Of a stretch of 13,255 nt of DNA, positions 1 through 13,255 are shown piece after piece; the stretch's first letter is position 1; each line of letters begins with the position of its first letter. Source of the stretch: a virus. The DNA lies in the UHGV virus genome UHGV-1728205, one strand, 5' to 3'. A program made the translations under genes and the position numbers. Under the pieces are notes generated by a model. That model saw only the letters and a list, made by a program, of their open reading frames with translations. It was not told where the DNA came from and made no database searches.

Positions 1-147
1 ACGAGTGGAACCACCTGTATCACGAGTGGAAGCACCTGTATCACGAGTGGAACCACCTGTATCACGAGTGGAAGCACCTGTAGCACGAGTTGAAGCACCT
101 GTAGCACGAGTTGAAGCACCTGTAGCACGATTTGAACCGCCTGTAGT
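1..147 (+). repeat. 21-bp tandem repeat, about 7 copies, in-frame coding (heptapeptide repeats)
   Basis: Units acgagtggaaccacctgtatc / acgagtggaagcacctgtatc / acgagttgaagcacctgtagc repeat head to tail from base 1, with a degenerate last unit near 127-147. The repeat probably continues upstream of the window. Confidence 0.85.
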
Positions 148-271
148 CGATGTCAGCGATTTGAAGGAGAAAATCAGACTGTATGCGTTATCACACAATC
201 CTCATTGCGATGTAGATAATATGCCGGATGATGTTGTTTTGATGATGTATAAAGATATGATGGGTCAATAA
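1..271 (+). CDS. 3' end of a gene entering from upstream of the window; heptapeptide-repeat region plus ~45-aa C-terminal segment, function unknown
   Basis: Frame with codons at 2-4, 5-7... is open from base 2 to TAA at 269-271. The M at position 5 in the ORF track is a GTG inside the open frame, not a real start. Encodes PVSRVEA/PVARVEA repeats then ...DLKEKIRLYALSHNPHCDVDNMPDDVVLMMYKDMMGQ. A hairpin terminator follows directly. Confidence 0.5.
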   Translation, partial: RVEPPVSRVEAPVSRVEPPVSRVEAPVARVEAPVARVEAPVARFEPPVVDVSDLKEKIRLYALSHNPHCDVDNMPDDVVLMMYKDMMGQ

Positions 272-902: not shown

Positions 903-1472
903 TCACAGATTCCCCATCGCTTTAACCAGCGCGTCGTAGTGTTTGTCAAACGCGGTTAACTGGACGTTCGTTAGTTTGTATTTGGCTTTAAACAATTCAC
1001 GCTCAACAAGCGCGTATAACTCCTGGTTGCTTGCGTCTGACAGATGAGAAAGCATGAGTTGTTTTTCAGCCAGGTACGTTACAGCAAACTTCGGATCGTG
1101 TCGGACAATTGAAGATGTGTTATCCAGCAGATCACACAGTTTTATAGTTTTCACCACAGGTTCAGCCCGTGATAAATGGTCGATGTCCCGTGCTTTACGC
1201 TTAACACGGTTGCCGTGGTGTGGACGACTCACATCAGTAAGCTGATCAACATAACGTGCGACCGTCTCACCGAACTGCGAGCACACATCACCCACGGTCA
1301 CGCGCGTATCTTCAACGACGTCATGTAGCCAGGCAGCGGTAATCATATCCGGCGTACCACCATAGCGTTTAACCAGTTCAGCAACGTTCCGGCAGTGGTT
1401 CACATATGGGTCGTTGGTGTACTTACGAAGTTGATCACCGTGTGCTGCTGTTGCGAATTGTTCAGGTGTCAT
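903..1472 (-). CDS. RelA/SpoT-family HD-domain phosphohydrolase (small alarmone hydrolase-like, putative (p)ppGpp/(p)ppApp hydrolase)
   Basis: 189 aa. HGDQLRKYTNDPYVNHCRNVA ... AAWLHDVVEDT ... FGETVARYV ... KLCDLLDN closely follows the SpoT/Mesh1 hydrolase pattern (H..R..G.PY..H...VA, AALLHDV.EDT, FG..VA..V, KLADRLHN). ATG at 1472 overlaps the upstream stop (ATGA). Confidence 0.8.
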   Translation of the reverse strand: MTPEQFATAAHGDQLRKYTNDPYVNHCRNVAELVKRYGGTPDMITAAWLHDVVEDTRVTVGDVCSQFGETVARYVDQLTDVSRPHHGNRVKRKARDIDHLSRAEPVVKTIKLCDLLDNTSSIVRHDPKFAVTYLAEKQLMLSHLSDASNQELYALVERELFKAKYKLTNVQLTAFDKHYDALVKAMGNL

Positions 1473-2343: not shown

Positions 2344-2536
2344 AAATTCTGTCTCCTTTAGGGTGCCGGTGGTTTTTCCAGCGGTTTTGCGCCGCGCTGG
2401 GCTTTTTGCAAAAACCACAATCCATCATCCCGTAATATTTCATCAACCCCATTCGTCGGTTGCTGAGTCTCACCCACTGCCAGACGCCGGGAGCGTTTCT
2501 ACGAACTAACAGAATCTTTGCCTTGCGGTTTTTCAT
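2333..2536 (-). CDS. hypothetical basic protein, 67 aa
   Basis: ATG at 2536 overlaps the TGA of the ParB-like gene (ATGA). Lys/Arg-rich. Confidence 0.45.
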   Translation of the reverse strand: MKNRKAKILLVRRNAPGVWQWVRLSNRRMGLMKYYGMMDCGFCKKPSAAQNRWKNHRHPKGDRIYVR

Positions 2537-3300
2537 AACTGGTGCTCCTTCAGTGCTTTTAACGCTTCGAACTGTTCAGCGGTAAGTTCAACCAGTACTT
2601 TACCACCTTCCGAACGGGTTACAGACCATTCACCACGGATTGCTTCCACTGCAGACCGTACCAGTTTAGCAGGTGGACGACGCGTTACTACTGGTTCTTT
2701 ATCACCTGCTTTAAACTGGCGAATGGCTGCTGATGCGCTGATTTCACCGTTCTGAATACGACGTTTAAGTTCCAGCGGCATATCAAGAATATTCAGTTGT
2801 TCGTAAACGTGTTGGACGGTTTTACCGACCTGTGTAGCGATCTGCTCAACACTCATACCATATGAACGGAAACGACCGTAAATAACAGCACGTTCAACGG
2901 GTGACCACGGTTTACCCTCATTACCTTTTAACAGTGTCAGGGTCTGTTGTAGTTCGTCACCGGACGATTCAACAACGTCTACTGTCAGAATCGGCGTCCC
3001 GGCCTCAATAGCTGCCAATACGCCACGTAAACGATGCTCACCATCCTGAACATAAGGAACACCATCAACAACCTGTACCACGATCGGTGGAACGAAATCG
3101 CCGTTGGTATAAGCCTGACGAAAGTTTTCAATGTGTGCCAGTGCTGCTTCAGTTTCCCAGTAGTTGTCGGTAAATACACCGCGTGGGTTATGTCCTGGAC
3201 GAATCTTGATAATACGCGGATCAATGCGATATGCGTTACCACGTTTTACGTTGGTTTTATCGGTATCAGATAGCTTGCGAAGGGAGTTAATGTTAGCCAT
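2533..3300 (-). CDS. ParB/Srx-like N-terminal domain protein with HTH (ParB-like nuclease/CTPase fold)
   Basis: 255 aa. PPIVVQVVDGVPYVQDGEHRLRGVLAA matches the ParB box (GxxRxxA-type GERRxRA motif). A helix-turn-helix-like segment (MSVEQIATQVGKTVQHVYEQLNIL) follows. ATG at 3300, with a promoter-like motif just upstream. Confidence 0.7.
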   Translation of the reverse strand: MANINSLRKLSDTDKTNVKRGNAYRIDPRIIKIRPGHNPRGVFTDNYWETEAALAHIENFRQAYTNGDFVPPIVVQVVDGVPYVQDGEHRLRGVLAAIEAGTPILTVDVVESSGDELQQTLTLLKGNEGKPWSPVERAVIYGRFRSYGMSVEQIATQVGKTVQHVYEQLNILDMPLELKRRIQNGEISASAAIRQFKAGDKEPVVTRRPPAKLVRSAVEAIRGEWSVTRSEGGKVLVELTAEQFEALKALKEHQL

Positions 3301-3334
3301 TTGTGTTTAGCCTCATGTGTGTTAACTGAGGCTA

Positions 3335-3379
3335 ATTATCGGGGGAGGTTGGTAATCTGTCAAGAATTATTTTAAGGGT
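3335..3379 (-). promoter_or_regulatory. sigma70-type promoter with AT-rich UP-like element (copy A of a conserved motif), driving the ParB-like gene and downstream genes
   Basis: Minus strand reads TAAAATAATTCTTGACA GATTAC...: -35 TTGACA (3363-3358), 17-bp spacer, -10 GATAAT (3340-3335). Overlaps the stop codon of the SLOG gene. Confidence 0.5.
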
Positions 3380-3767
3380 ACGGCACCCACACAGTTAAAC
3401 CAGCTTTCAACATGCGACGGTGCATATCAGCCGTACCACGCCCACCTGGGAACACAACACCGTATGTAGGTCGTGGTTCACCCTCTAACATTGCCTGATT
3501 GCGTTGATGACCTGCAACAGCGTTATAAGCCCCGTGCTTACCCTGTTTTACAACCGCACCCGGCACTGTCAGATCGTTCCACGCTGCCGGACAACTACGA
3601 ACTGGAATACCGTGTAATTGCGCCCACTGCTTACACAAGTTATCAACACCTGATGCACCGCCTTCAATTAGTTCGGTAACCGGGTGTTGTTTGTGAAGTA
3701 ACCCTAATGCTGAAAATATCGCTGTTCTGTCGTTGAAGTCACGACCACCTGTAACGACTATTATCAT
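3372..3767 (-). CDS. SLOG-superfamily protein (LOG/DprA/YpsA-like Rossmann domain, DUF2493-like), putative nucleotide-binding or nucleotide-processing
   Basis: 131 aa. N-terminal IIVVTGGRDF, then LIEGGASGVD, then C-terminal VVFPGGRGTADM resembling the LOG-family PGGxGTxxE signature. ATG at 3767 overlaps the TGA of the methyltransferase-like gene (ATGA). Confidence 0.5.
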   Translation of the reverse strand: MIIVVTGGRDFNDRTAIFSALGLLHKQHPVTELIEGGASGVDNLCKQWAQLHGIPVRSCPAAWNDLTVPGAVVKQGKHGAYNAVAGHQRNQAMLEGEPRPTYGVVFPGGRGTADMHRRMLKAGLTVWVPYP

Positions 3768-4444
3768 TGTTTATTAGCCTCAAATACAGCACGAGCAAAA
3801 CCACGCGGGGTTAATGAACGTAACTGTTTAGTTGTTTCAGACTTACCACCCAGATATTTCCAACCCCAGAAGAAACCAATATTAATCGGTCCGGGACGTT
3901 TTTCAGGCATTCTGAAACCGTTACCGAACCACAGACATGTTTTCTTCGTGTATCCGTCAAACATCGGCATTTTAGGGTGAAAAGGTTTATCATCTGTTGT
4001 CATATAACCGCCATATTCCCACGGATGAAAATAAGCGTCAGGTGTCCCCATCATTTCAGACCGTGATAAAGCACCGACAGGGTTTTCGACCATCCAGGGT
4101 ACGTTATAACGTTCTCCGAGTTCACGGATCAGTTTTGCGTTTGCCAGTGCATACTGTAGTTCAGCGTCATCCCGGTCATGTTGCGAACCGCTTTGAGCAA
4201 ACAGGGTGCAATCCGGAAAACCAAAAATAATTGACGGTAAAGGTGTTCCCAGTATTTCCTGCTTAATTGCAAATTGTGGGTCAATCCACTGATTAACGTA
4301 ATGAAGATTTGGGTGTTGCATTTTGATTTTATATTCCCCGTGATTACCGGAATCAGCATTAAAGCAATAAACCTGATAGCCAGCCTTAGCCCACGGTAAA
4401 CCCATAATCCCGGAACCATCGAATAACGACCAGACGACTTTCAT
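3764..4444 (-). CDS. compact C5-cytosine methyltransferase-like protein (226 aa; catalytic motifs present, no obvious target-recognition domain)
   Basis: SLFDGSG (motif I, FxGxG AdoMet-binding like), FGFPDCTLFAQSG (aligns with motif IV GGPPCQxFSxAG including the catalytic Cys), MVENPVG (motif VI ENV). ATG at 4444 overlaps the upstream stop (ATGA). Confidence 0.5.
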   Translation of the reverse strand: MKVVWSLFDGSGIMGLPWAKAGYQVYCFNADSGNHGEYKIKMQHPNLHYVNQWIDPQFAIKQEILGTPLPSIIFGFPDCTLFAQSGSQHDRDDAELQYALANAKLIRELGERYNVPWMVENPVGALSRSEMMGTPDAYFHPWEYGGYMTTDDKPFHPKMPMFDGYTKKTCLWFGNGFRMPEKRPGPINIGFFWGWKYLGGKSETTKQLRSLTPRGFARAVFEANKQ

Positions 4445-4656
4445 CCTTCTGTTTCCTCTACGATCCGCGTGATTTTAACAGGCGCAATTGTTACTTTTCT
4501 GCAATTGAAACCCTGATCGCGAAGTGCTTTAAGTGCAACACCAGCCATGTAAGTTGAACTGAACAGAGTAGCTTCACTGATATCAACCCAGGTAATCCGG
4601 GTATCAATATGTGCATAACGGTCTTCTTTTTTGATCACAGCACCGAATTCAGTCAT
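4441..4656 (-). CDS. hypothetical protein, 71 aa
   Basis: ATG at 4656 overlaps the end of the upstream membrane-protein gene by 8 nt; stop TGA overlaps the start of the methyltransferase-like gene. Confidence 0.5.
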   Translation of the reverse strand: MTEFGAVIKKEDRYAHIDTRITWVDISEATLFSSTYMAGVALKALRDQGFNCRKVTIAPVKITRIVEETEG

Positions 4657-4846
4657 GATCGTTTTTCACTCCCCACATGCAAGCGCCAATTGATGCCGCA
4701 GCCGCTAATAATCCAAGACCAGCCAGAAACCACCACGGAGTTTCCGCATGATTACCACGGGTCATTAGTCCGACAATGCAAGACGCTAGTGTTACGGACA
4801 CAAGGAACACGATAACAGTGATTAAACGGTCAAATATGTTTTTCAT
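4649..4846 (-). CDS. small membrane protein (two predicted transmembrane helices), 65 aa
   Basis: Hydrophobic stretches LITVIVFLVSVTLASCIVGLM and WWFLAGLGLLAAAASIGACMW. ATG at 4846 overlaps the upstream stop (ATGA). Confidence 0.55.
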   Translation of the reverse strand: MKNIFDRLITVIVFLVSVTLASCIVGLMTRGNHAETPWWFLAGLGLLAAAASIGACMWGVKNDHD

Positions 4847-5076
4847 GGTTTTTTGTACCCCGTGTTAAACTTTTCTATTGCTTCTTCTTTAGTTGCTGAA
4901 ATACAAATACCAATGCCGTTATCTAATAAGAAAGACCAGTAGTTTTCACCGTACTTTTTAATCATTTCTGGATGTAAAGATTTTCTTTTGATAAGTGTTG
5001 GATTGTGTGACTCAACAAAAGAATATAAGTCTTCGCCTTGTAAGTTTTCAAAGTCTGTTAATTTAGATGGTTTCAT
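4843..5076 (-). CDS. hypothetical protein, ~77 aa (start uncertain)
   Basis: ATG at 5076 chosen because the track start at 5214 is TTG and would overlap the upstream zinc-ribbon gene by ~150 nt. An internal ATG at 5172 is an alternative. Confidence 0.4.
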   Translation of the reverse strand: MKPSKLTDFENLQGEDLYSFVESHNPTLIKRKSLHPEMIKKYGENYWSFLLDNGIGICISATKEEAIEKFNTGYKKP

Positions 5077-5302
5077 GGTTTTTCTTCCAGTTCCATTCGC
5101 GACGTGCAGCCGCTGATGTTGTTTGATAAGTGTGACCGCAGTTTTTACAATGACAGGTGTACACGTTTCCATTTTCACCAGTAACTTCAACGTTTTCCCA
5201 GTTGCGTGTACCAAACCCTAATAAATAATCACGTAGGTTTCGCTCATAACACTTACTGCAGCGTAATGAACGAGTTCGACGACATGATCCACGACCACCC
5301 AT
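5063..5302 (-). CDS. small zinc-ribbon-like protein, 79 aa
   Basis: ATG at 5302 preceded by AAGGTG Shine-Dalgarno, 2 nt after the stop of the upstream gene. Cys clusters C-x8-C-x2-C and CHCKNC. Confidence 0.55.
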   Translation of the reverse strand: MGGRGSCRRTRSLRCSKCYERNLRDYLLGFGTRNWENVEVTGENGNVYTCHCKNCGHTYQTTSAAARREWNWKKNHETI

Positions 5303-5607: not shown

Positions 5608-7962
5608 CTAACCGTTACTCGCAGGTGGGAAAGGCACTACATTAGCTGTTGATTGAAAATGGAGAAGACGAATACCCCTGAAACCGTTTAATCGTACGTT
5701 ATTTATATTAACAACGTCTTTTTTCACTTTACCACGAAGGGTGGATTTAAACGCCCGACTAAATGCAGTTTTAGTCATTGCTGGACCACCTTCCTGTGTT
5801 TTCCAAAGACGATAACGACCATAGAGTTCTTCAGTATGTACCTCACCATCAGATACCAATTCGCAACAATCTCTGATAAAACTTCTAAGTGGTGATTGTT
5901 GATCCATAATTTCCTGACGTTCTTCCAGACTTGCTTTTGGTTCAGTAAACCGTCCGTTTGCACGTAACCGTTGTAAACCTTCAATCGCCCAGTTACAGAT
6001 CCCCGGTAGTTCTTTCATCAGTCGTGCTTCCAGAGTGGTATCTTCACGACCCAGGAACGAAATGTTGAATGGCAGGATCAGCAAACGGTTAGCCATTGCA
6101 CCTGAATCATCAGCAAATGCCGGTATGTTGTTAGCAGCCAGTGTCATACGTCCCGGTAAACGACCGTTCCATGCACCTTTATACTTACGATTAACCGGAA
6201 TCGCATCACAACCTGTAATAGATTTGAAACGGTCCAGAATTCGGTTGCGATCAGGCCCGGACACACTGTGAGCATCACCAATAAACAGCACAGATTTATC
6301 CAGCACAGTTTCAAGTACCGCATCACTGGCTAAACCCTCTAGTGTGATCCCTGCATACGCTTCATCACCTACCAGTGCCTGAATGATGCGACCAATCGTA
6401 CCTTTACCGGAACGTGGTGCACCAATCAACAGCATCGCTTTCTGATAGTCATACGAGTTGACAAGCATGTAACCCAGCCATTCCTGCAACAATGCAATAC
6501 GTTCCTGATCACCTTCCAGAGTTGTATTAAGGAACTGTTCAAATGCTGGCGCACGGGCAAACGGATCGTAGCTATACGGTAAAATACTGGTCGTAAAGAA
6601 GTCTGGGTTATGTGCATCACATTTACCCGTATGTACATCCAGTATCCCGTTCTGACAAACAATATAGTGTGATACATCAACGCCGGGCCATGTTCCAAGC
6701 TCACGATCAGCGCGTGTGAATAAATACGACAATACCTTGTACGTACCATTGATCACGTCAGCTTTTGGTTCGCTGGCAAGCATTGCAATAGAAATTTGAT
6801 GTTTCAGTTCATCTTCACTGACACGTTCCCATACACGGCCGTTAAACCGGTACGGCTGTTGCTGGACGAAAATCAATGTGTTGTTCGGATAATAGTTATT
6901 AACGAACGTGGATGCGTTAACCGTATGGTTTGAACCATATGCACCTTCACCGGGTCTCACACTCATGTACGCAGGTGTTCCACCATTAGGAACGACGGTA
7001 GGCGCTGGTGTGACTGCTTTCATCAGTTCTGGTGTCATTGTCGGTTGACTACGATACACAGTATCACAACGTTCCACAGCGCCCAGAATCGTGTTTTCAC
7101 GGTAATCCTGACGATCTGTCCATTTACCACGAACCAGCCCGGAACGGTTAAACAATCGTTCAATACGTTCGCAATCTTTCCCGGTCCAGAACGCAAGGTG
7201 TGAACACAGGGCAGCATCTGCTGCTGATGCGTTGTAGTCTTTCCCCTGGTCACTAGGATATGACACAGACAGGCGTTCAACGTTTGCATTCCACAGATCC
7301 GCAAATGACGCTTTATTGCCAAATACTGAAGCAGCACTGGACGAATTTAACGCCATTTTAATCAGTTCATCGTCGTCTGTCGGTCCTGACCAGTCATCAC
7401 AAGGTGCTGTTGTCCAGCGTGCGGAACGGTCTGAACGGATACGACCATACCGGGCAATAGAATCATGAATACCCTGGGTATAATCAATATCAACATCACC
7501 ATTACCCGTGAGCGTCATCGCGACGAAACGATCACGCCAGTACATTTCCAGCCCGGTTTTCTGGTCGTTCAGACTGTTAAAACCTTCCGGTATGCTGGTA
7601 TAAGCACAGATGATATGCAAACCTGTTCCTGACTGACTGACTTCGGTGTACGCGTTTGGAAAACGGTTTACGAATTCATGCGCCAGTGGTGACCACGTAG
7701 CTGTTGCCTGATCTACCAGACAGTTATCAACATCGATAAAGAAATAAGGGTCATTTTCTGTGAATACAAAACCAACACCAGACATACCGTACATTTGCGC
7801 CATGCCTAACGCGGTGTGATAGTCAGACCAGTCGTTAGGGTTAGTGGTACTGGCTTTATAACCGTGTACCGGACTGTATGGTACTTTCGTTGGTTTTGGA
7901 CGATCGGCGACTGTCTCAAGCCGCCACATGACCCACTGTTTACGGTTCAGTAACCCTTTCAT
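5608..7962 (-). CDS. bifunctional primase-polymerase (archaeo-eukaryotic primase fold, prim-pol type) fused to an SF3 (D5/P4-type) helicase
   Basis: 784 aa. N-terminal QWVMWRLE...KVPYS, DxD motif FFIDVDNC and SGTGLHIICAY (AEP motifs I and II). C-terminal P-loop LLIGAPRSGKGT (Walker A) typical of phage/plasmid primase-helicase C-terminal domains. ATG at 7962, stop TAG at 5608-5610. Confidence 0.85.
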   Translation of the reverse strand: MKGLLNRKQWVMWRLETVADRPKPTKVPYSPVHGYKASTTNPNDWSDYHTALGMAQMYGMSGVGFVFTENDPYFFIDVDNCLVDQATATWSPLAHEFVNRFPNAYTEVSQSGTGLHIICAYTSIPEGFNSLNDQKTGLEMYWRDRFVAMTLTGNGDVDIDYTQGIHDSIARYGRIRSDRSARWTTAPCDDWSGPTDDDELIKMALNSSSAASVFGNKASFADLWNANVERLSVSYPSDQGKDYNASAADAALCSHLAFWTGKDCERIERLFNRSGLVRGKWTDRQDYRENTILGAVERCDTVYRSQPTMTPELMKAVTPAPTVVPNGGTPAYMSVRPGEGAYGSNHTVNASTFVNNYYPNNTLIFVQQQPYRFNGRVWERVSEDELKHQISIAMLASEPKADVINGTYKVLSYLFTRADRELGTWPGVDVSHYIVCQNGILDVHTGKCDAHNPDFFTTSILPYSYDPFARAPAFEQFLNTTLEGDQERIALLQEWLGYMLVNSYDYQKAMLLIGAPRSGKGTIGRIIQALVGDEAYAGITLEGLASDAVLETVLDKSVLFIGDAHSVSGPDRNRILDRFKSITGCDAIPVNRKYKGAWNGRLPGRMTLAANNIPAFADDSGAMANRLLILPFNISFLGREDTTLEARLMKELPGICNWAIEGLQRLRANGRFTEPKASLEERQEIMDQQSPLRSFIRDCCELVSDGEVHTEELYGRYRLWKTQEGGPAMTKTAFSRAFKSTLRGKVKKDVVNINNVRLNGFRGIRLLHFQSTANVVPFPPASNG

Positions 7963-10432: not shown

Positions 10433-10462
10433 TTTCTACCCTGTAATATCGAATCGTGAAAA

Positions 10463-10508
10463 AAGTTTAAAATAGTTCTTGACGCATTGCAACTTATTCC
10501 TCTAACAT
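10463..10508 (+). promoter_or_regulatory. sigma70-type promoter, upstream copy (D) of the conserved motif
   Basis: TTTAAAATAGTTCTTGACG CATTGC: -35 TTGACG (10479-10484), ~18-bp spacer, -10 TAACAT (10503-10508). A more divergent copy of the motif. Confidence 0.4.
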
Positions 10509-10525
10509 CTGCATCAACGAAAGGT

Positions 10526-10570
10526 GAGTGTAAAATAATTCTTGACAGATTACACAACACCTTTTAAAGT
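10526..10570 (+). promoter_or_regulatory. sigma70-type promoter with AT-rich UP-like element (copy C), driving the plus-strand operon
   Basis: GTGTAAAATAATTCTTGACA GATTAC: -35 TTGACA (10542-10547), 17-bp spacer, -10 TAAAGT (10565-10570). About 30 nt upstream of the AAGAGGA Shine-Dalgarno and ATG at 10603. Confidence 0.55.
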
Positions 10571-10602
10571 TAGCGACAACCAAACAACAAGAGGAAAACG
10601 TA

Positions 10603-11364
10603 ATGTTCGAAGTTAAATTACTTGTAACTGCTCCGGGTCTGGAAACTGCGATCAACAATCTGGCAAACGCTATTGCGACTGGTGCTGCACCACTCATGAC
10701 TGCTCAGGGTGATGGTATCACTAAAGAAACCGTGACTGTCGTTGCTGAATCATTGCCTGTTGTATCTGCACCAACTGAAGATGTTGACGATAATGAAACC
10801 AGCACTGAAGAGTTCGACAAATGGGGTTTGCGTCATGATCCGCGTATCCACACTGACAGTAAATCCCTGAACAAAGGTGATGGTCTGTGGCGTCAAAAGA
10901 AAAAACTGGATGAAGCGTTTGTTGACGGTGTTAAACGTGAACTTATCGCTGAAGCAGTTGAAGCAGGGCGTTATACCGGACCTGCAGAACTTGCACCGGG
11001 TTATGTAGCACCTGTTGATCCTGCTCCAGCGGTTCCTGCCGCTCCGGTAGCTCCAGTTGTACCAGCAGCACCGGCTGCACCAGTCGAGCAACCTGTAACC
11101 ACGGATCCGGCTAAAGTTTATAACACCCAGGTTCTTCAGTCAGCACTAATGCAGATGTTTGGACAAATTACGGGCGACCGTGCCGCGCCATTAAGTCAGC
11201 GAATCATGGGACTGTATGAAACTCAGAATGTAATGCAGATTGATGACCCGGTGAAACTGAAATCTATCATCGAACTGATTGAACGTATTAACGCTGCCCC
11301 TGCTGATGCTGAAAATATTGTCGGTCAGGCTGAGTCTGTTAAACAAATGGGTGGGGCATTCTGA
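10603..11364 (+). CDS. hypothetical protein with central Pro/Ala-rich low-complexity linker, 253 aa
   Basis: ATG at 10603 with AAGAGGA Shine-Dalgarno. First gene after the promoter region. Linker APGYVAPVDPAPAVPAAPVAPVVPAAPAAPV encoded around 10975-11095. Stop TGA overlaps the next ATG (TGATG). Confidence 0.6.
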   Translation: MFEVKLLVTAPGLETAINNLANAIATGAAPLMTAQGDGITKETVTVVAESLPVVSAPTEDVDDNETSTEEFDKWGLRHDPRIHTDSKSLNKGDGLWRQKKKLDEAFVDGVKRELIAEAVEAGRYTGPAELAPGYVAPVDPAPAVPAAPVAPVVPAAPAAPVEQPVTTDPAKVYNTQVLQSALMQMFGQITGDRAAPLSQRIMGLYETQNVMQIDDPVKLKSIIELIERINAAPADAENIVGQAESVKQMGGAF

Positions 11365-12509
11365 TGACCAGTCACGCTACCTTTAGTGCCAGTGGATCAA
11401 AACGTTGGTTAGCTTGTCCGGGTAGCGTTCAACTGTCACAGCGGATTGATTATGTAGAACCATCATCACCCAGTGCTGAAGAAGGTACAGCCGGGCACTG
11501 GGTGTTAGAACAGAAGATTAAAGGTAAACCGCCATTAATGCCGTGTCTTGCTCCTAACGGTGTTCAGGTTACTGAAGACATGCACATTTACGCGGATGAC
11601 TTTATAGCAGATGTTCTTTCAGTTGGTGCGAAACTTGATCCGCTGTTTTCAGAAGTTCGCATTCACATTGACTGGTTGTTACCCGGTCAGTACGGAACCT
11701 GTGATTATCGCTGGTATGATTTTAATACTGATACGCTTTATGTATGGGATTATAAATATGGTCATGTTGCAGTTGACGCAGTTGATAACTCACAGGGGGT
11801 CTATTATGCACTGGACCAACGTTGCATCGACACCGTTAAGCGCGTTGTGTTCACAATTGTTCAGCCACGGGCTTATCACCCACTCGGACCTGTAAGACGA
11901 TGGGAGTTTAACCGGACAACATTGATGGAATGGGCTGAACGATTTAAACACGGGTTTAACGAAGCACATAAACCAGACGCGCCGTTAAATGTTGGTAGTC
12001 ATTGTCATTACTGTCCGGCGCGTGGTATGTGTCCGGCGATGTATGAGAGGATTTTAGAATTGGCTACTGTTCTTGATGCACCACCATCACTTACGCCAGA
12101 AGAAGTAGCGCGTCGTCTGGCACTTCTTGAAGAACTGTATACGCGTTCTTCTGAAGCAAAAACAGCGTTACATACTCAGGGGTTACATTTTGTTCGCATG
12201 GGTAAGGCTTTACCGGGTTTTAAACTTGCAACAAAGCAAACCCGACGTCAGCTTACGGACGAAGGAAAACTGATCGGTGCTGCACCCATGTTTGGTGTAA
12301 ACCCTGAAACATTGTACGAACGTAAATTAAAACCGTTGTCAACACTGGAAAAATCACTACCTCCGGCACTTGTTGACATGTGTACGACAAAACCAGAAGG
12401 TCAGCCAGTTTTAGTACCTGACAGTGACCCACGTAAAGGTCACAGCACACTGGCAGAATCTGTTTTTAATAAACCCGTGACGATGCCGACTGGCGCACGT
12501 CCACTTTAA
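11364..12509 (+). CDS. DUF2800-family PD-(D/E)XK nuclease (Cas4/RecB-like, with Cys cluster)
   Basis: 381 aa. N-terminus MTSHATFSASGSKRWLACPGS is the characteristic DUF2800 start. Core CDYRWYDF...VWDYKYGH gives the D...(D/E)xK motif. C-terminal CHYCPARGMCPA supplies three Cys which, with the N-terminal Cys, would form a Cas4-like 4-Cys cluster. Confidence 0.75.
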   Translation: MTSHATFSASGSKRWLACPGSVQLSQRIDYVEPSSPSAEEGTAGHWVLEQKIKGKPPLMPCLAPNGVQVTEDMHIYADDFIADVLSVGAKLDPLFSEVRIHIDWLLPGQYGTCDYRWYDFNTDTLYVWDYKYGHVAVDAVDNSQGVYYALDQRCIDTVKRVVFTIVQPRAYHPLGPVRRWEFNRTTLMEWAERFKHGFNEAHKPDAPLNVGSHCHYCPARGMCPAMYERILELATVLDAPPSLTPEEVARRLALLEELYTRSSEAKTALHTQGLHFVRMGKALPGFKLATKQTRRQLTDEGKLIGAAPMFGVNPETLYERKLKPLSTLEKSLPPALVDMCTTKPEGQPVLVPDSDPRKGHSTLAESVFNKPVTMPTGARPL

Positions 12510-12524
12510 AAGAAGGTTAATAAC

Positions 12525-13255
12525 ATGGCACAGAAAGAATCTTTTGTAACTCCGGTTGGTCGTCTGGTTGGCGGTTCTTTTTTCGATATCAACACTCATG
12601 ACCACGAAAATAAACCGTTAGCACCTGAAAAACACAACTGGTGGGTTGGTCTGGCGTTTCCTAAAACAGCGGCGAACTGGTGGGAAGAACAAGGTGAACT
12701 GGGTGCGGTATTCCAGGCGATTATGCGAGCGGCTAACTCACACTATGTGAACGGCGAACCACAACAACCTACTTTCGCATGGAAAATTATTAACGGTGAT
12801 GATCCGAAACATGCGAGTAAAACGGGTTATGCTGGTCACTGGGTAATTGGTTTCTCACGCAACGTGGCTATTGACGCGTGTCCGGTTTATAACGCAGCGT
12901 ACCAGCCAGTTATTGATAAAAATCTGGCGAAAAAAGGGTATTACTACCGTATCAGCGGATCATCTGTTGCAAACGGTCGTACAGGTAATCAGGCTGGCGT
13001 ATATATCAACATGGAAATGGCGCAATTGCTTTATGCGGGTGAAGAAATTATTTCTGGTCCGGCTCCTGCCTCTGTGTTCGGTGCTGCTCCTGCAATGCCT
13101 GAAGGTGCACGTCCGATCGGCGTAACACCAGCGGTAGCACCTGTAGCAGCGCCTATACCAGCGGCAGCACCTGTAGCAGCGCCTACACCAGCGGCAGCAC
13201 CTGTAGCAGCGCCTACACCAGCGGCAGCACCTGTAGCAGCGCCTACACCAGCGGC
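12525..13255 (+). CDS. DUF2815-like putative phage ssDNA-binding protein, 3' end truncated by the window; C-terminal Pro/Ala-rich tandem-repeat tail
   Basis: ATG at 12525 with AAGAAGG Shine-Dalgarno. My own translation is open to the window end: MAQKESFVTPVGRLVGGSFFDINTHDHENKPLAPEKHNWWVGLAFPK...GVYINMEMAQLLYAGEEIISGPAPASVFGAAPAMPEGARPIGVTPAVAPVAAPIPAAAPVAAPTPAAAPVAAPTPA... Sits directly downstream of DUF2800, as in the DUF2800-DUF2815 replication module. Family assignment is from memory of that arrangement and N-terminal pattern, not from a search. Confidence 0.5.
   Translation, partial: MAQKESFVTPVGRLVGGSFFDINTHDHENKPLAPEKHNWWVGLAFPKTAANWWEEQGELGAVFQAIMRAANSHYVNGEPQQPTFAWKIINGDDPKHASKTGYAGHWVIGFSRNVAIDACPVYNAAYQPVIDKNLAKKGYYYRISGSSVANGRTGNQAGVYINMEMAQLLYAGEEIISGPAPASVFGAAPAMPEGARPIGVTPAVAPVAAPIPAAAPVAAPTPAAAPVAAPTPAAAPVAAPTPA
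13131..13255 (+). repeat. 30-bp tandem repeat, at least 4 copies, in-frame coding (AAPVAAPTPA decapeptide repeats), running off the window
   Basis: Unit gcggcagcacctgtagcagcgcctacacca at 13161-13190, 13191-13220 and 13221-13250 (three identical copies), one variant copy at 13131-13160, and a partial copy to 13255. Confidence 0.9.

Follow-up and report, generated by a model that had tools for sequence, protein, structure and literature searches.

Genes at the locus

The stretch of viral DNA analysed here (UHGV virus genome UHGV-1728205; 13,255 nucleotides, referred to as the window) carries two short, overlapping genes on its minus strand, encoding a 226 amino acid protein with motifs of DNA cytosine-5 (C5) methyltransferases and a 131 amino acid SLOG protein. 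A previous sequence-only reading had proposed that the two act jointly in the modification of nucleotides or DNA bases. According to the present analysis, they are probably two independent accessory genes, an orphan Dcm-like methylase and a separate SLOG protein, which are adjacent by chance in a packed early/replication operon. The window shares about 95% nucleotide identity with 9NA/Sasha-like siphophages (Escherichia phages PDP46 and PJ16, Sashavirus BDX09P1) and is assigned on this basis to a phage of the same type. The features considered in the following are:

3764..4444, minus strand: putative Dcm-like short DNA (cytosine-5) methyltransferase, 226 amino acids (open reading frame, motifs, PHROG, model)
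3372..3767, minus strand: predicted standalone YAcAr/DUF2493 SLOG protein, 131 amino acids (PF10686, PHROG 289, AlphaFold2 model)
3764..3767, minus strand: ATGA overlap of the methylase stop and the SLOG start (sequence reading)
4441..4656, minus strand: 71 amino acid gene upstream in the overlapping chain, PHROG 26050 (unknown function)
4649..4846, minus strand: 65 amino acid membrane/lipoprotein-like gene upstream in the chain, PHROG 22517 (also in the annotation of phage Sergei)
3335..3363, minus strand: TTGACA-17-GATAAT, a sigma-70-like promoter site separating the SLOG and ParB-like genes (11 of 12 consensus positions, consensus match only)
2533..3300, minus strand: ParB-like gene downstream, separate transcription unit (PHROG 1033, E value 8.5e-60; HTH_ParB, 1.3e-06)

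Coordinates, lengths and the ATGA overlap of the pair (3372-4444) are exactly those of the sequence-only reading, and the motifs quoted there are in place (FDGSG, PDC and ENP in the 226 amino acid protein, PGGRGT in the 131 amino acid protein). Both open reading frames can be excluded as chance occurrences. Homologues form 638 (methylase) and 802 (SLOG) clusters at 90% identity, the methylase gene was found by tblastn in 1,491 of 50,697 phage genome records and the SLOG gene in 651, and confident models were obtained for both proteins with a predicted local distance difference test (pLDDT) score of 89 for the methylase and 96.5 for the SLOG protein.

The two genes terminate a chain of minus-strand genes (4843..5214, 4649..4846, 4441..4656, 3764..4444 and 3372..3767) with successive overlaps of 4 to 8 nucleotides, located downstream of a primase-polymerase/D5-helicase gene (5608..7962). 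The product of the latter, which is encoded on the minus strand and heads the block containing the methylase and SLOG genes, comprises 784 amino acids with an NrS-1-type helix-bundle domain, D5_N and DUF5906 (D5-like helicase). As had been stated before, the chain ends just before the promoter-like site and the ParB-like gene. An association of this gene with the methylase, also suggested at that time, was not corroborated: judged from the sequence, the ParB-like gene (TIGR00180 at 2.4e-09, under the cut-off of this model) forms a separate unit behind a promoter-like site of its own, and in relatives other genes intervene. The gap between the SLOG and ParB-like genes (3301-3371 in the window; the same slot in loci L001, L003, L004 and L005) is an insertion hot spot, containing an HNH endonuclease gene in Sergei and BU9, a 76 amino acid gene in PDP46 and Bas82, and the promoter-like site alone in the window.

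The 226 amino acid protein

The core of a C5-methyltransferase, which had been recognized from the letters of the sequence, was recovered with its catalytic residues. Motif I (FDGSG) covers residues 8-12, of which D9, G10, S11 and G12 are invariant in close relatives. Motif IV includes PDC at positions 77-79 with the catalytic Cys79 (FPDCT in the window protein, FPPCT in the family), and motif VI is represented by ENP at 120-122 with an invariant Glu120. A motif-VIII-like element, YTKKT with Lys167/Lys168, lies within YTKKTCLW; a motif-IX-like stretch (RSLTPRGF) and a motif IX/X-like helix (RSLTPRGFARAV) were also identified. A comparison of 51 family representatives, with identities of 32-61% to the window protein, showed eleven positions without any variation (Cys79, Gly86, Glu120, Pro122, Pro141, Tyr165, Lys167, Thr169, Trp172, Pro180 and Arg209). 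In the family consensus, motif I is LFDxTG, motif IV is FPPCTDLAVSGA and motif VI is ENPV.

The earlier description of the enzyme as devoid of a target-recognition domain (TRD) is nearly right in that a full TRD is absent, but a miniature segment of about 37 amino acids remains at approximately residues 174 to 207. The distance from Trp172 to Arg209, corresponding to the interval between the motif-VIII-like element and motif IX, is 33-48 residues (median 37) in 51 of 51 representatives. This is in contrast to DNMT3A/DNMT3B, M.HhaI and M.HaeIII (PF00145), to which the sequence identity is 11-18%; in M.HhaI, roughly 100 residues separate the motif-VIII-like element from motif IX. Residues 181 to 200, approximately, contain insertions and deletions and show the highest variability of the C-terminal half among the 51 representatives. 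The alignment thus points to a methylase family with a miniature recognition segment.

In structure comparisons, DNMT3B, a prophage C5-methyltransferase and M.HhaI were closest to the methylase model, while generic Rossmann methyltransferases align over 120-145 residues only. DNA C5-methyltransferases outscored DNMT2, and the fold is nearer to the former than to other Rossmann methyltransferases. The structural neighbours also include 8yf3, a C5-carboxymethyltransferase that occurs in nature. At the level of sequence profiles, PHROG 757 (phrog_757, 'DNA methyltransferase') matched residues 1-225 with an E value of 1e-79; weak N-terminal matches were obtained with M.HaeIII (E value 0.26) and PADLOC MTase_II (4.7e-05).

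An exhaustive profile search revealed 1,739 clusters of the family at 50% identity, nearly all of them 200-260 amino acids long; the Dcm-like protein of phage PaulSarasin is 63% identical to the window methylase. Fusions are rare and were found with an HNH nuclease and, weakly, with a helix-turn-helix domain, no others being detected in the family. Genes for phage Dam, single-stranded DNA-binding protein, HNH proteins and integrase are recurrent neighbours. Since these fusions and neighbours are DNA-related, DNA is indicated as the substrate. Taken together, sequence and model classify the 226 amino acid protein as the catalytic domain of a DNA C5-cytosine methyltransferase and as an unexceptional representative of a large phage family of short enzymes. 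Further DNA methyltransferase genes are found in 9NA-like phages beyond the part that corresponds to the window, namely gp61 of 9NA (COG0863; L176, 35817-36998) as well as Bas82_0034 and Bas82_0062 (L177, 14144-14554 and 34262-34783), and the Dcm-like gene is therefore not the sole methylase gene of this group.

Comparison with the Dcm enzyme of phage K42

A homologue of the window methylase has been assayed from phage K42, a phage with about 95% identity to KarlJaspers (Bas06) of the BASEL collection (bioRxiv 10.1101/2023.08.16.553469). K42 escapers of retron Ec86 map to a 711-bp 'Dcm' gene, the expression of which is toxic only when retron Ec86 is present. With K42 Dcm, 5-methylcytosine was detected by liquid chromatography-mass spectrometry on the stem-loop of the multicopy single-stranded DNA of the retron, i.e. 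on double-stranded DNA in CCWGG context, and a change of CCTGG to AATGG led to loss of retron sensing. The quadruple mutant C82A/E128A/K175A/K176A was inert, and the predicted structure of K42 Dcm superposes on DNMT3A (all 10.1101/2023.08.16.553469).

The KarlJaspers gene bas06_0055 has a length of 711 bp and is annotated as 'Dcm-like C5 cytosine methyltransferase'. Its product is 43% identical to the window methylase over the full length (E value 1e-60), and C82, E128, K175 and K176 of K42 Dcm align to C79, E120, K167 and K168. The K42/KarlJaspers and window enzymes have in common PHROG 757, the architecture, a similar length (236 versus 226 amino acids), the Cys, Glu and Lys-Lys residues and a DNMT3-like predicted fold. 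They differ in motif IV (PDC in the window, PPC in K42/KarlJaspers), in the mini-recognition segment (residues 181 to 200, approximately) and in the type of phage, which is 9NA-like in the one case and belongs to the Drexlerviridae in the other. Because the variable recognition segment differs, the CCWGG specificity is not transferable to the window methylase. CCWGG occurs at 19 sites in the window versus 14.4 ± 3.8 expected and is neither avoided nor enriched.

An action on nucleotides, one of the options raised earlier for so short an enzyme, is not in line with these data: since the 43% identical K42 Dcm makes 5-methylcytosine on double-stranded DNA, the window enzyme is most likely a DNA methylase and not a nucleotide-modifying enzyme. 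By analogy, it most likely works as an orphan phage enzyme that carries out plain cytosine-5 methylation of DNA. The reaction course would follow from the fold, the motifs and the homology of the window protein, in combination with a chemistry demonstrated for the homologue only. S-adenosylmethionine would be bound through motifs I-III and the target cytosine flipped; Cys79 would then attack C6, Glu120 protonate N3, and the methyl group be transferred from S-adenosylmethionine to C5. Contact to the target may be made by the catalytic loop, by Lys167/Lys168 and by a variable segment, about 35 residues in length, that replaces a full TRD, much as in DNMT3, and like DNMT3 the enzyme is possibly dimeric. 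Both sequence specificity and biological benefit are extrapolated: phage and host DNA would most likely be methylated at a short motif, which might protect against some restriction enzymes and might at the same time expose the phage to sensors of the retron Ec86 type.

The 131 amino acid protein

The SLOG protein matched Pfam PF10686 (YAcAr, 'YspA, cpYpsA-related SLOG family', formerly DUF2493) with 73 bits (cut-off 28.2, E value 1.8e-20), which is its sole Pfam match at E values up to 0.1, and it belongs to PHROG 289. Among the matches listed, 120 of 120 homologues carry PF10686, and the 802 clusters of homologues consist mostly of standalone proteins of 112-147 amino acids. The motifs GGR (7-9), GxAxGxD (36-42), AG..RN..M (85-93, with RN..M at 89-93) and PGGRGT (107-112, within PGGRGTADM at 107-115) were located; R9, D42, R89, N90, T112 and D114 are strictly conserved polar residues of the pocket. 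In a Foldseek search, the AlphaFold2 model had its top matches with LOG, the molybdenum cofactor carrier protein (MCP), ShosA, the TRPM2 MHR and DprA (probability 1.0, template modelling (TM) score 0.55-0.69), with E values of only 1e-3 or weaker. No close relative among solved structures was found by this search.

With the YAcAr/DUF2493 family the protein shares the Gly-rich motifs and the typical standalone size of approximately 115-135 amino acids. An insertion of about 16 residues (approximately 65-82, a beta hairpin in the model), which is absent from most members, distinguishes the window protein and its close relatives. The claim of a LOG-like protein held with respect to the SLOG fold and the PGGRGT loop, but not with respect to the family, which is YAcAr/DUF2493. 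Similarity to LOG and PpnN/YgdH comprises the same fold (TT1465, type II LOG and YgdH in Foldseek), the PGGxGT loop and the R-x-x-x-M helix motif. The terminal Glu of the LOG motif PGGxGTxxE is catalytic; at its position the window protein has Met115, which is nearly invariant, with Asp114 one residue before. In addition, GGGxxGxMG of LOG is replaced by GGASGVD, and the window protein is about 50-70 residues shorter. With DprA/Smf it shares the SLOG Rossmannoid core (TM score 0.5-0.66) and a loop of the GxAxGxD type, and links to proteins of DNA replication are known for the YAcAr family; in contrast to DprA/Smf, it is a complete single domain of 131 amino acids with a Pfam family of its own and without flanking DprA domains.

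The profile searches suggested in the sequence-only reading were carried out and placed the protein in PF10686, with no match to the Pfam models of LOG or DprA and none to NCBIfam. An assignment as LOG orthologue was rejected because of Met115 at the Glu position and the missing match to a LOG model, and one as DprA fragment because of the full-length, well-folded domain, PF10686 and the missing DprA match. Sequence and model identify the protein as a typical standalone member of the YAcAr/DUF2493 SLOG proteins, a family without demonstrated activity; a literature search on its function gave predictions and notes on domain fusions only. SLOG homologues with approximately 46% identity were also found in Queuovirinae, a group known for 7-deazaguanine DNA, among them CAjan, Seurat and, from the BASEL collection, VogelGryff and WildeMaa; the homologue of CAjan (L170, 3501-3893) is located among small early genes.

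Occurrence of both genes in phage genomes

In the window as well as in PDP46, PJ16, Sasha and Sergei, the methylase gene is directly followed by the SLOG gene, and in Klebsiella phage BU9 the two are separated by a 65 amino acid gene. Phage 9NA encodes the methylase without the SLOG protein, whereas Bas82 and VLCpiS10a encode the SLOG protein without the methylase. When both genomes were searched in full with hidden Markov models, 9NA yielded only the methylase and Bas82 only the SLOG gene, with no further copy even at E values up to 10. In the BASEL data, Bas82, which lacks the Dcm-like methylase, shows a marked sensitivity to restriction systems. Sasha and Sergei share 51% identity with the window in the methylase and 95% in the SLOG protein, which argues for a different recombination history of the two genes.

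Gene neighbourhoods were sampled in IMG/VR within 6 kb of 80 methylase-anchored and 80 SLOG-anchored loci. A SLOG gene was present at 2 of the 80 methylase loci, and the methylase gene at 7 of the 80 SLOG loci, five of these seven being 9NA-like relatives. Methylase and SLOG gene do not constitute a conserved module, each occurring independently of the other. Single-gene relatives, unlike allele histories and the rare neighbourhood in viral contigs all speak against a dedicated pair, and the paired modification module of the sequence-only reading was abandoned on these grounds.

The most frequent immediate neighbours of SLOG genes encode a superfamily 2 (SF2) helicase (12), a sigma factor (8) and a phage RNA polymerase (4), with NADAR in 2 loci; within 6 kb, a helicase was found in 18 and a beta clamp in 15 of the 80 loci. 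In a Sinorhizobium prophage (L175), overlaps join the SLOG gene to both of its flanking genes, a sigma-like one upstream and an SF2 helicase gene downstream. Because the same type of overlap joins SLOG genes to unrelated neighbours, the ATGA overlap in the window is regarded as ordinary operon packing. Fusions of the YAcAr domain with the SF1B helicase HelB of ICP1 and with DciA in Streptomyces have been described.

In two other lineages, a SLOG gene likewise lies directly beside the gene of a DNA-modifying enzyme. Vibrio phage K389 (OZ196347.1; L171, 608-3839) harbors genes for a D5-type primase, a 185 amino acid MT-A70 methylase and a SLOG protein, the latter joined by a 4-nucleotide overlap of the ATGA type; its SLOG gene is thus positioned as in the window, but beside a methylase of another class. 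A high-GC contig (L140, 6001-8024; IMGVR_UViG_3300036715_002351) encodes a SLOG protein, a member of the C5-methyltransferase family (16-nucleotide overlap), a 75 amino acid protein and a DpdA-like protein (phrog_887, E value 7e-45) just upstream of the large terminase, and may represent a DNA-modification island. A link to 7-deazaguanine modification was tested and rejected, a DpdA-like gene being found near 1 of the 160 loci only (L140). Given that replication modules of phages often contain methylases and that a DpdA-like gene occurs at this single locus, the adjacency in K389 and L140 is read as a coincidence of location, and a loose functional link of the SLOG protein with the neighbouring DNA methylase is considered unlikely.

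Interpretation

Two independent accessory genes, adjacent by chance, probably account best for the data. With the methylase acting as described above, the SLOG protein is probably not its partner. It would most likely bind, and might possibly process, a nucleotide-derived ligand or single-stranded DNA in the Gly-rich pocket, and would probably serve the replication or early-gene apparatus of the phage, links and fusions to which recur in the family; both suggestions are uncertain.

Several observations weigh against this interpretation. Pfam PF00145 did not match the methylase at E values up to 0.1, nor did any NCBIfam model, and a search of PDB sequences with the family profile found no C5-methyltransferase. 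Even within the family, PF00145 detects 1 of the 51 representatives (E value 0.007). The window clade has Asn29 in motif II, where most of the family has Asp, and PDC instead of PPC in motif IV. The Asn is also present in the KarlJaspers orthologue of the K42 enzyme and is thus compatible with activity, and the residue preceding the catalytic Cys is variable in close relatives (P, D or S). The assayed homologue shares no more than 43% identity with the window methylase, and its characterization has been published as a preprint. In the BASEL collection, methyltransferase genes of Drexlerviridae have no simple link to restriction resistance. For the SLOG protein, a role in replication is not what the Aravind group has predicted, namely that phage YAcAr domains use NAD+/ADP-ribose, with fusions to Macro, NADAR and Nudix domains. 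Finally, SLOG genes stand beside a DNA methylase gene in three independent lineages, i.e. the window, K389 and L140.

The prediction of the Aravind group and these fusions are in line with a second, doubtful but possible explanation, in which the SLOG protein is an anti-defence factor independent of the methylase, binding or cleaving a nucleotide immune signal or an NAD-derived product such as the cyclic ADP-ribose isomers of Thoeris or ADP-ribose adducts. The TRPM2 MHR found by Foldseek contains bound ADP-ribose, NADAR is an immediate neighbour in 2 loci, and the conserved polar pocket (R9, D42, R89, N90, T112 and D114) is consistent with such a ligand. SLOG domains of ThsA are reported to bind cyclic ADP-ribose isomers. 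However, a search of the sponge literature turned up neither a sponge nor a hydrolase among phage SLOG proteins, no PADLOC match was obtained for the SLOG protein, and its family is neighboured by or fused to helicases, clamp, sigma factor and DciA in the main, not to anti-defence genes.

A joint module, in which C5 transfer by the short methyltransferase is followed by a LOG-like N-glycosidic cleavage or base processing to yield a non-canonical DNA or nucleotide modification, is unlikely. It would give a meaning to the ATGA overlap, to the overlap of MT-A70 methylase and SLOG genes in K389 and to the cluster of SLOG, C5-methyltransferase and DpdA-like genes in L140, and the structural neighbour 8yf3 illustrates that C5-methyltransferase folds can transfer other groups. 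These points are outweighed by 9NA and Bas82 with one gene each, by a divergence from Sasha and Sergei of 49% for the methylase alleles compared to 5% for SLOG, and by the low co-occurrence within 6 kb (2 of 80 and 7 of 80, with a DpdA-like gene near 1 of 160). Moreover, K42 Dcm expressed alone, without a SLOG partner, gives plain 5-methylcytosine, the catalytic Glu of LOG is Met115 in the window protein, and ATGA overlaps join SLOG genes to those of helicases and sigma factors as well.

K389 and L140 would also fit a broader role of YAcAr SLOG proteins as general helpers of adjacent DNA-modifying enzymes (C5 in the window, MT-A70 in K389, C5 and DpdA-like in L140), which is judged very unlikely. 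The SLOG protein could in this case relieve product inhibition by cleaving a by-product, for instance S-adenosylhomocysteine, at its N-glycosidic bond; alternatively, it could supply or process a nucleotide precursor. If true, the overlap of methylase and SLOG gene would be functional rather than incidental. Highly improbable is a DNMT2-like RNA/tRNA m5C enzyme or a catalytically weakened DNA-binding protein in place of the methylase, given the better scores of DNA enzymes compared to DNMT2, the obvious constraint on the invariant Cys79, Glu120 and Lys167, the presence of the motif II Asn in KarlJaspers, whose enzyme is orthologous to the active K42 Dcm, the tolerance for P, D or S before the Cys in close relatives and the fusions to DNA-related domains.

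Under the preferred reading of two independent genes, 3764..4444 is to be annotated as a gene for a Dcm-like DNA C5-methyltransferase. The family is present in approximately 3% of the GenBank phage records and missed by Pfam and NCBIfam, and is consequently under-reported by profile-based annotation. As a family member is reported to trigger retron Ec86, phages carrying the gene may be sensed, which bears on host-range prediction for phages of E. coli, Salmonella and Klebsiella. YAcAr SLOG proteins are common in phages (651 records) with no known activity, and 9NA and Bas82 offer natural single-gene controls.

Other features of the window

Outside the methylase and SLOG genes, a minus-strand gene (903..1472) encodes a 189 amino acid HD_4 phosphohydrolase of the RelA/SpoT-type HD group (Pfam, 3.9e-15; PHROG 990), which carries the annotation of a RelA/SpoT family protein in PDP46 and is possibly a phage (p)ppGpp hydrolase. 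A divergent intergenic region (10433-10602) separates the SF2 helicase gene on the minus strand from a plus-strand operon (10603..12509), the latter encoding a 253 amino acid protein of unknown kind and a DUF2800 PD-(D/E)XK exonuclease. The minimum of the cumulative GC skew coincides with this intergenic region, which is on that account a candidate early promoter or origin region. Coding tandem repeats are located at both ends of the window, with seven copies of 21 bp at 1-146 (heptapeptides, open reading frame 5..271) and 4.4 copies of 30 bp at 13125-13255; the gene of Sergei corresponding to the window repeat gene is annotated with a 'direct tandem repeat region'.

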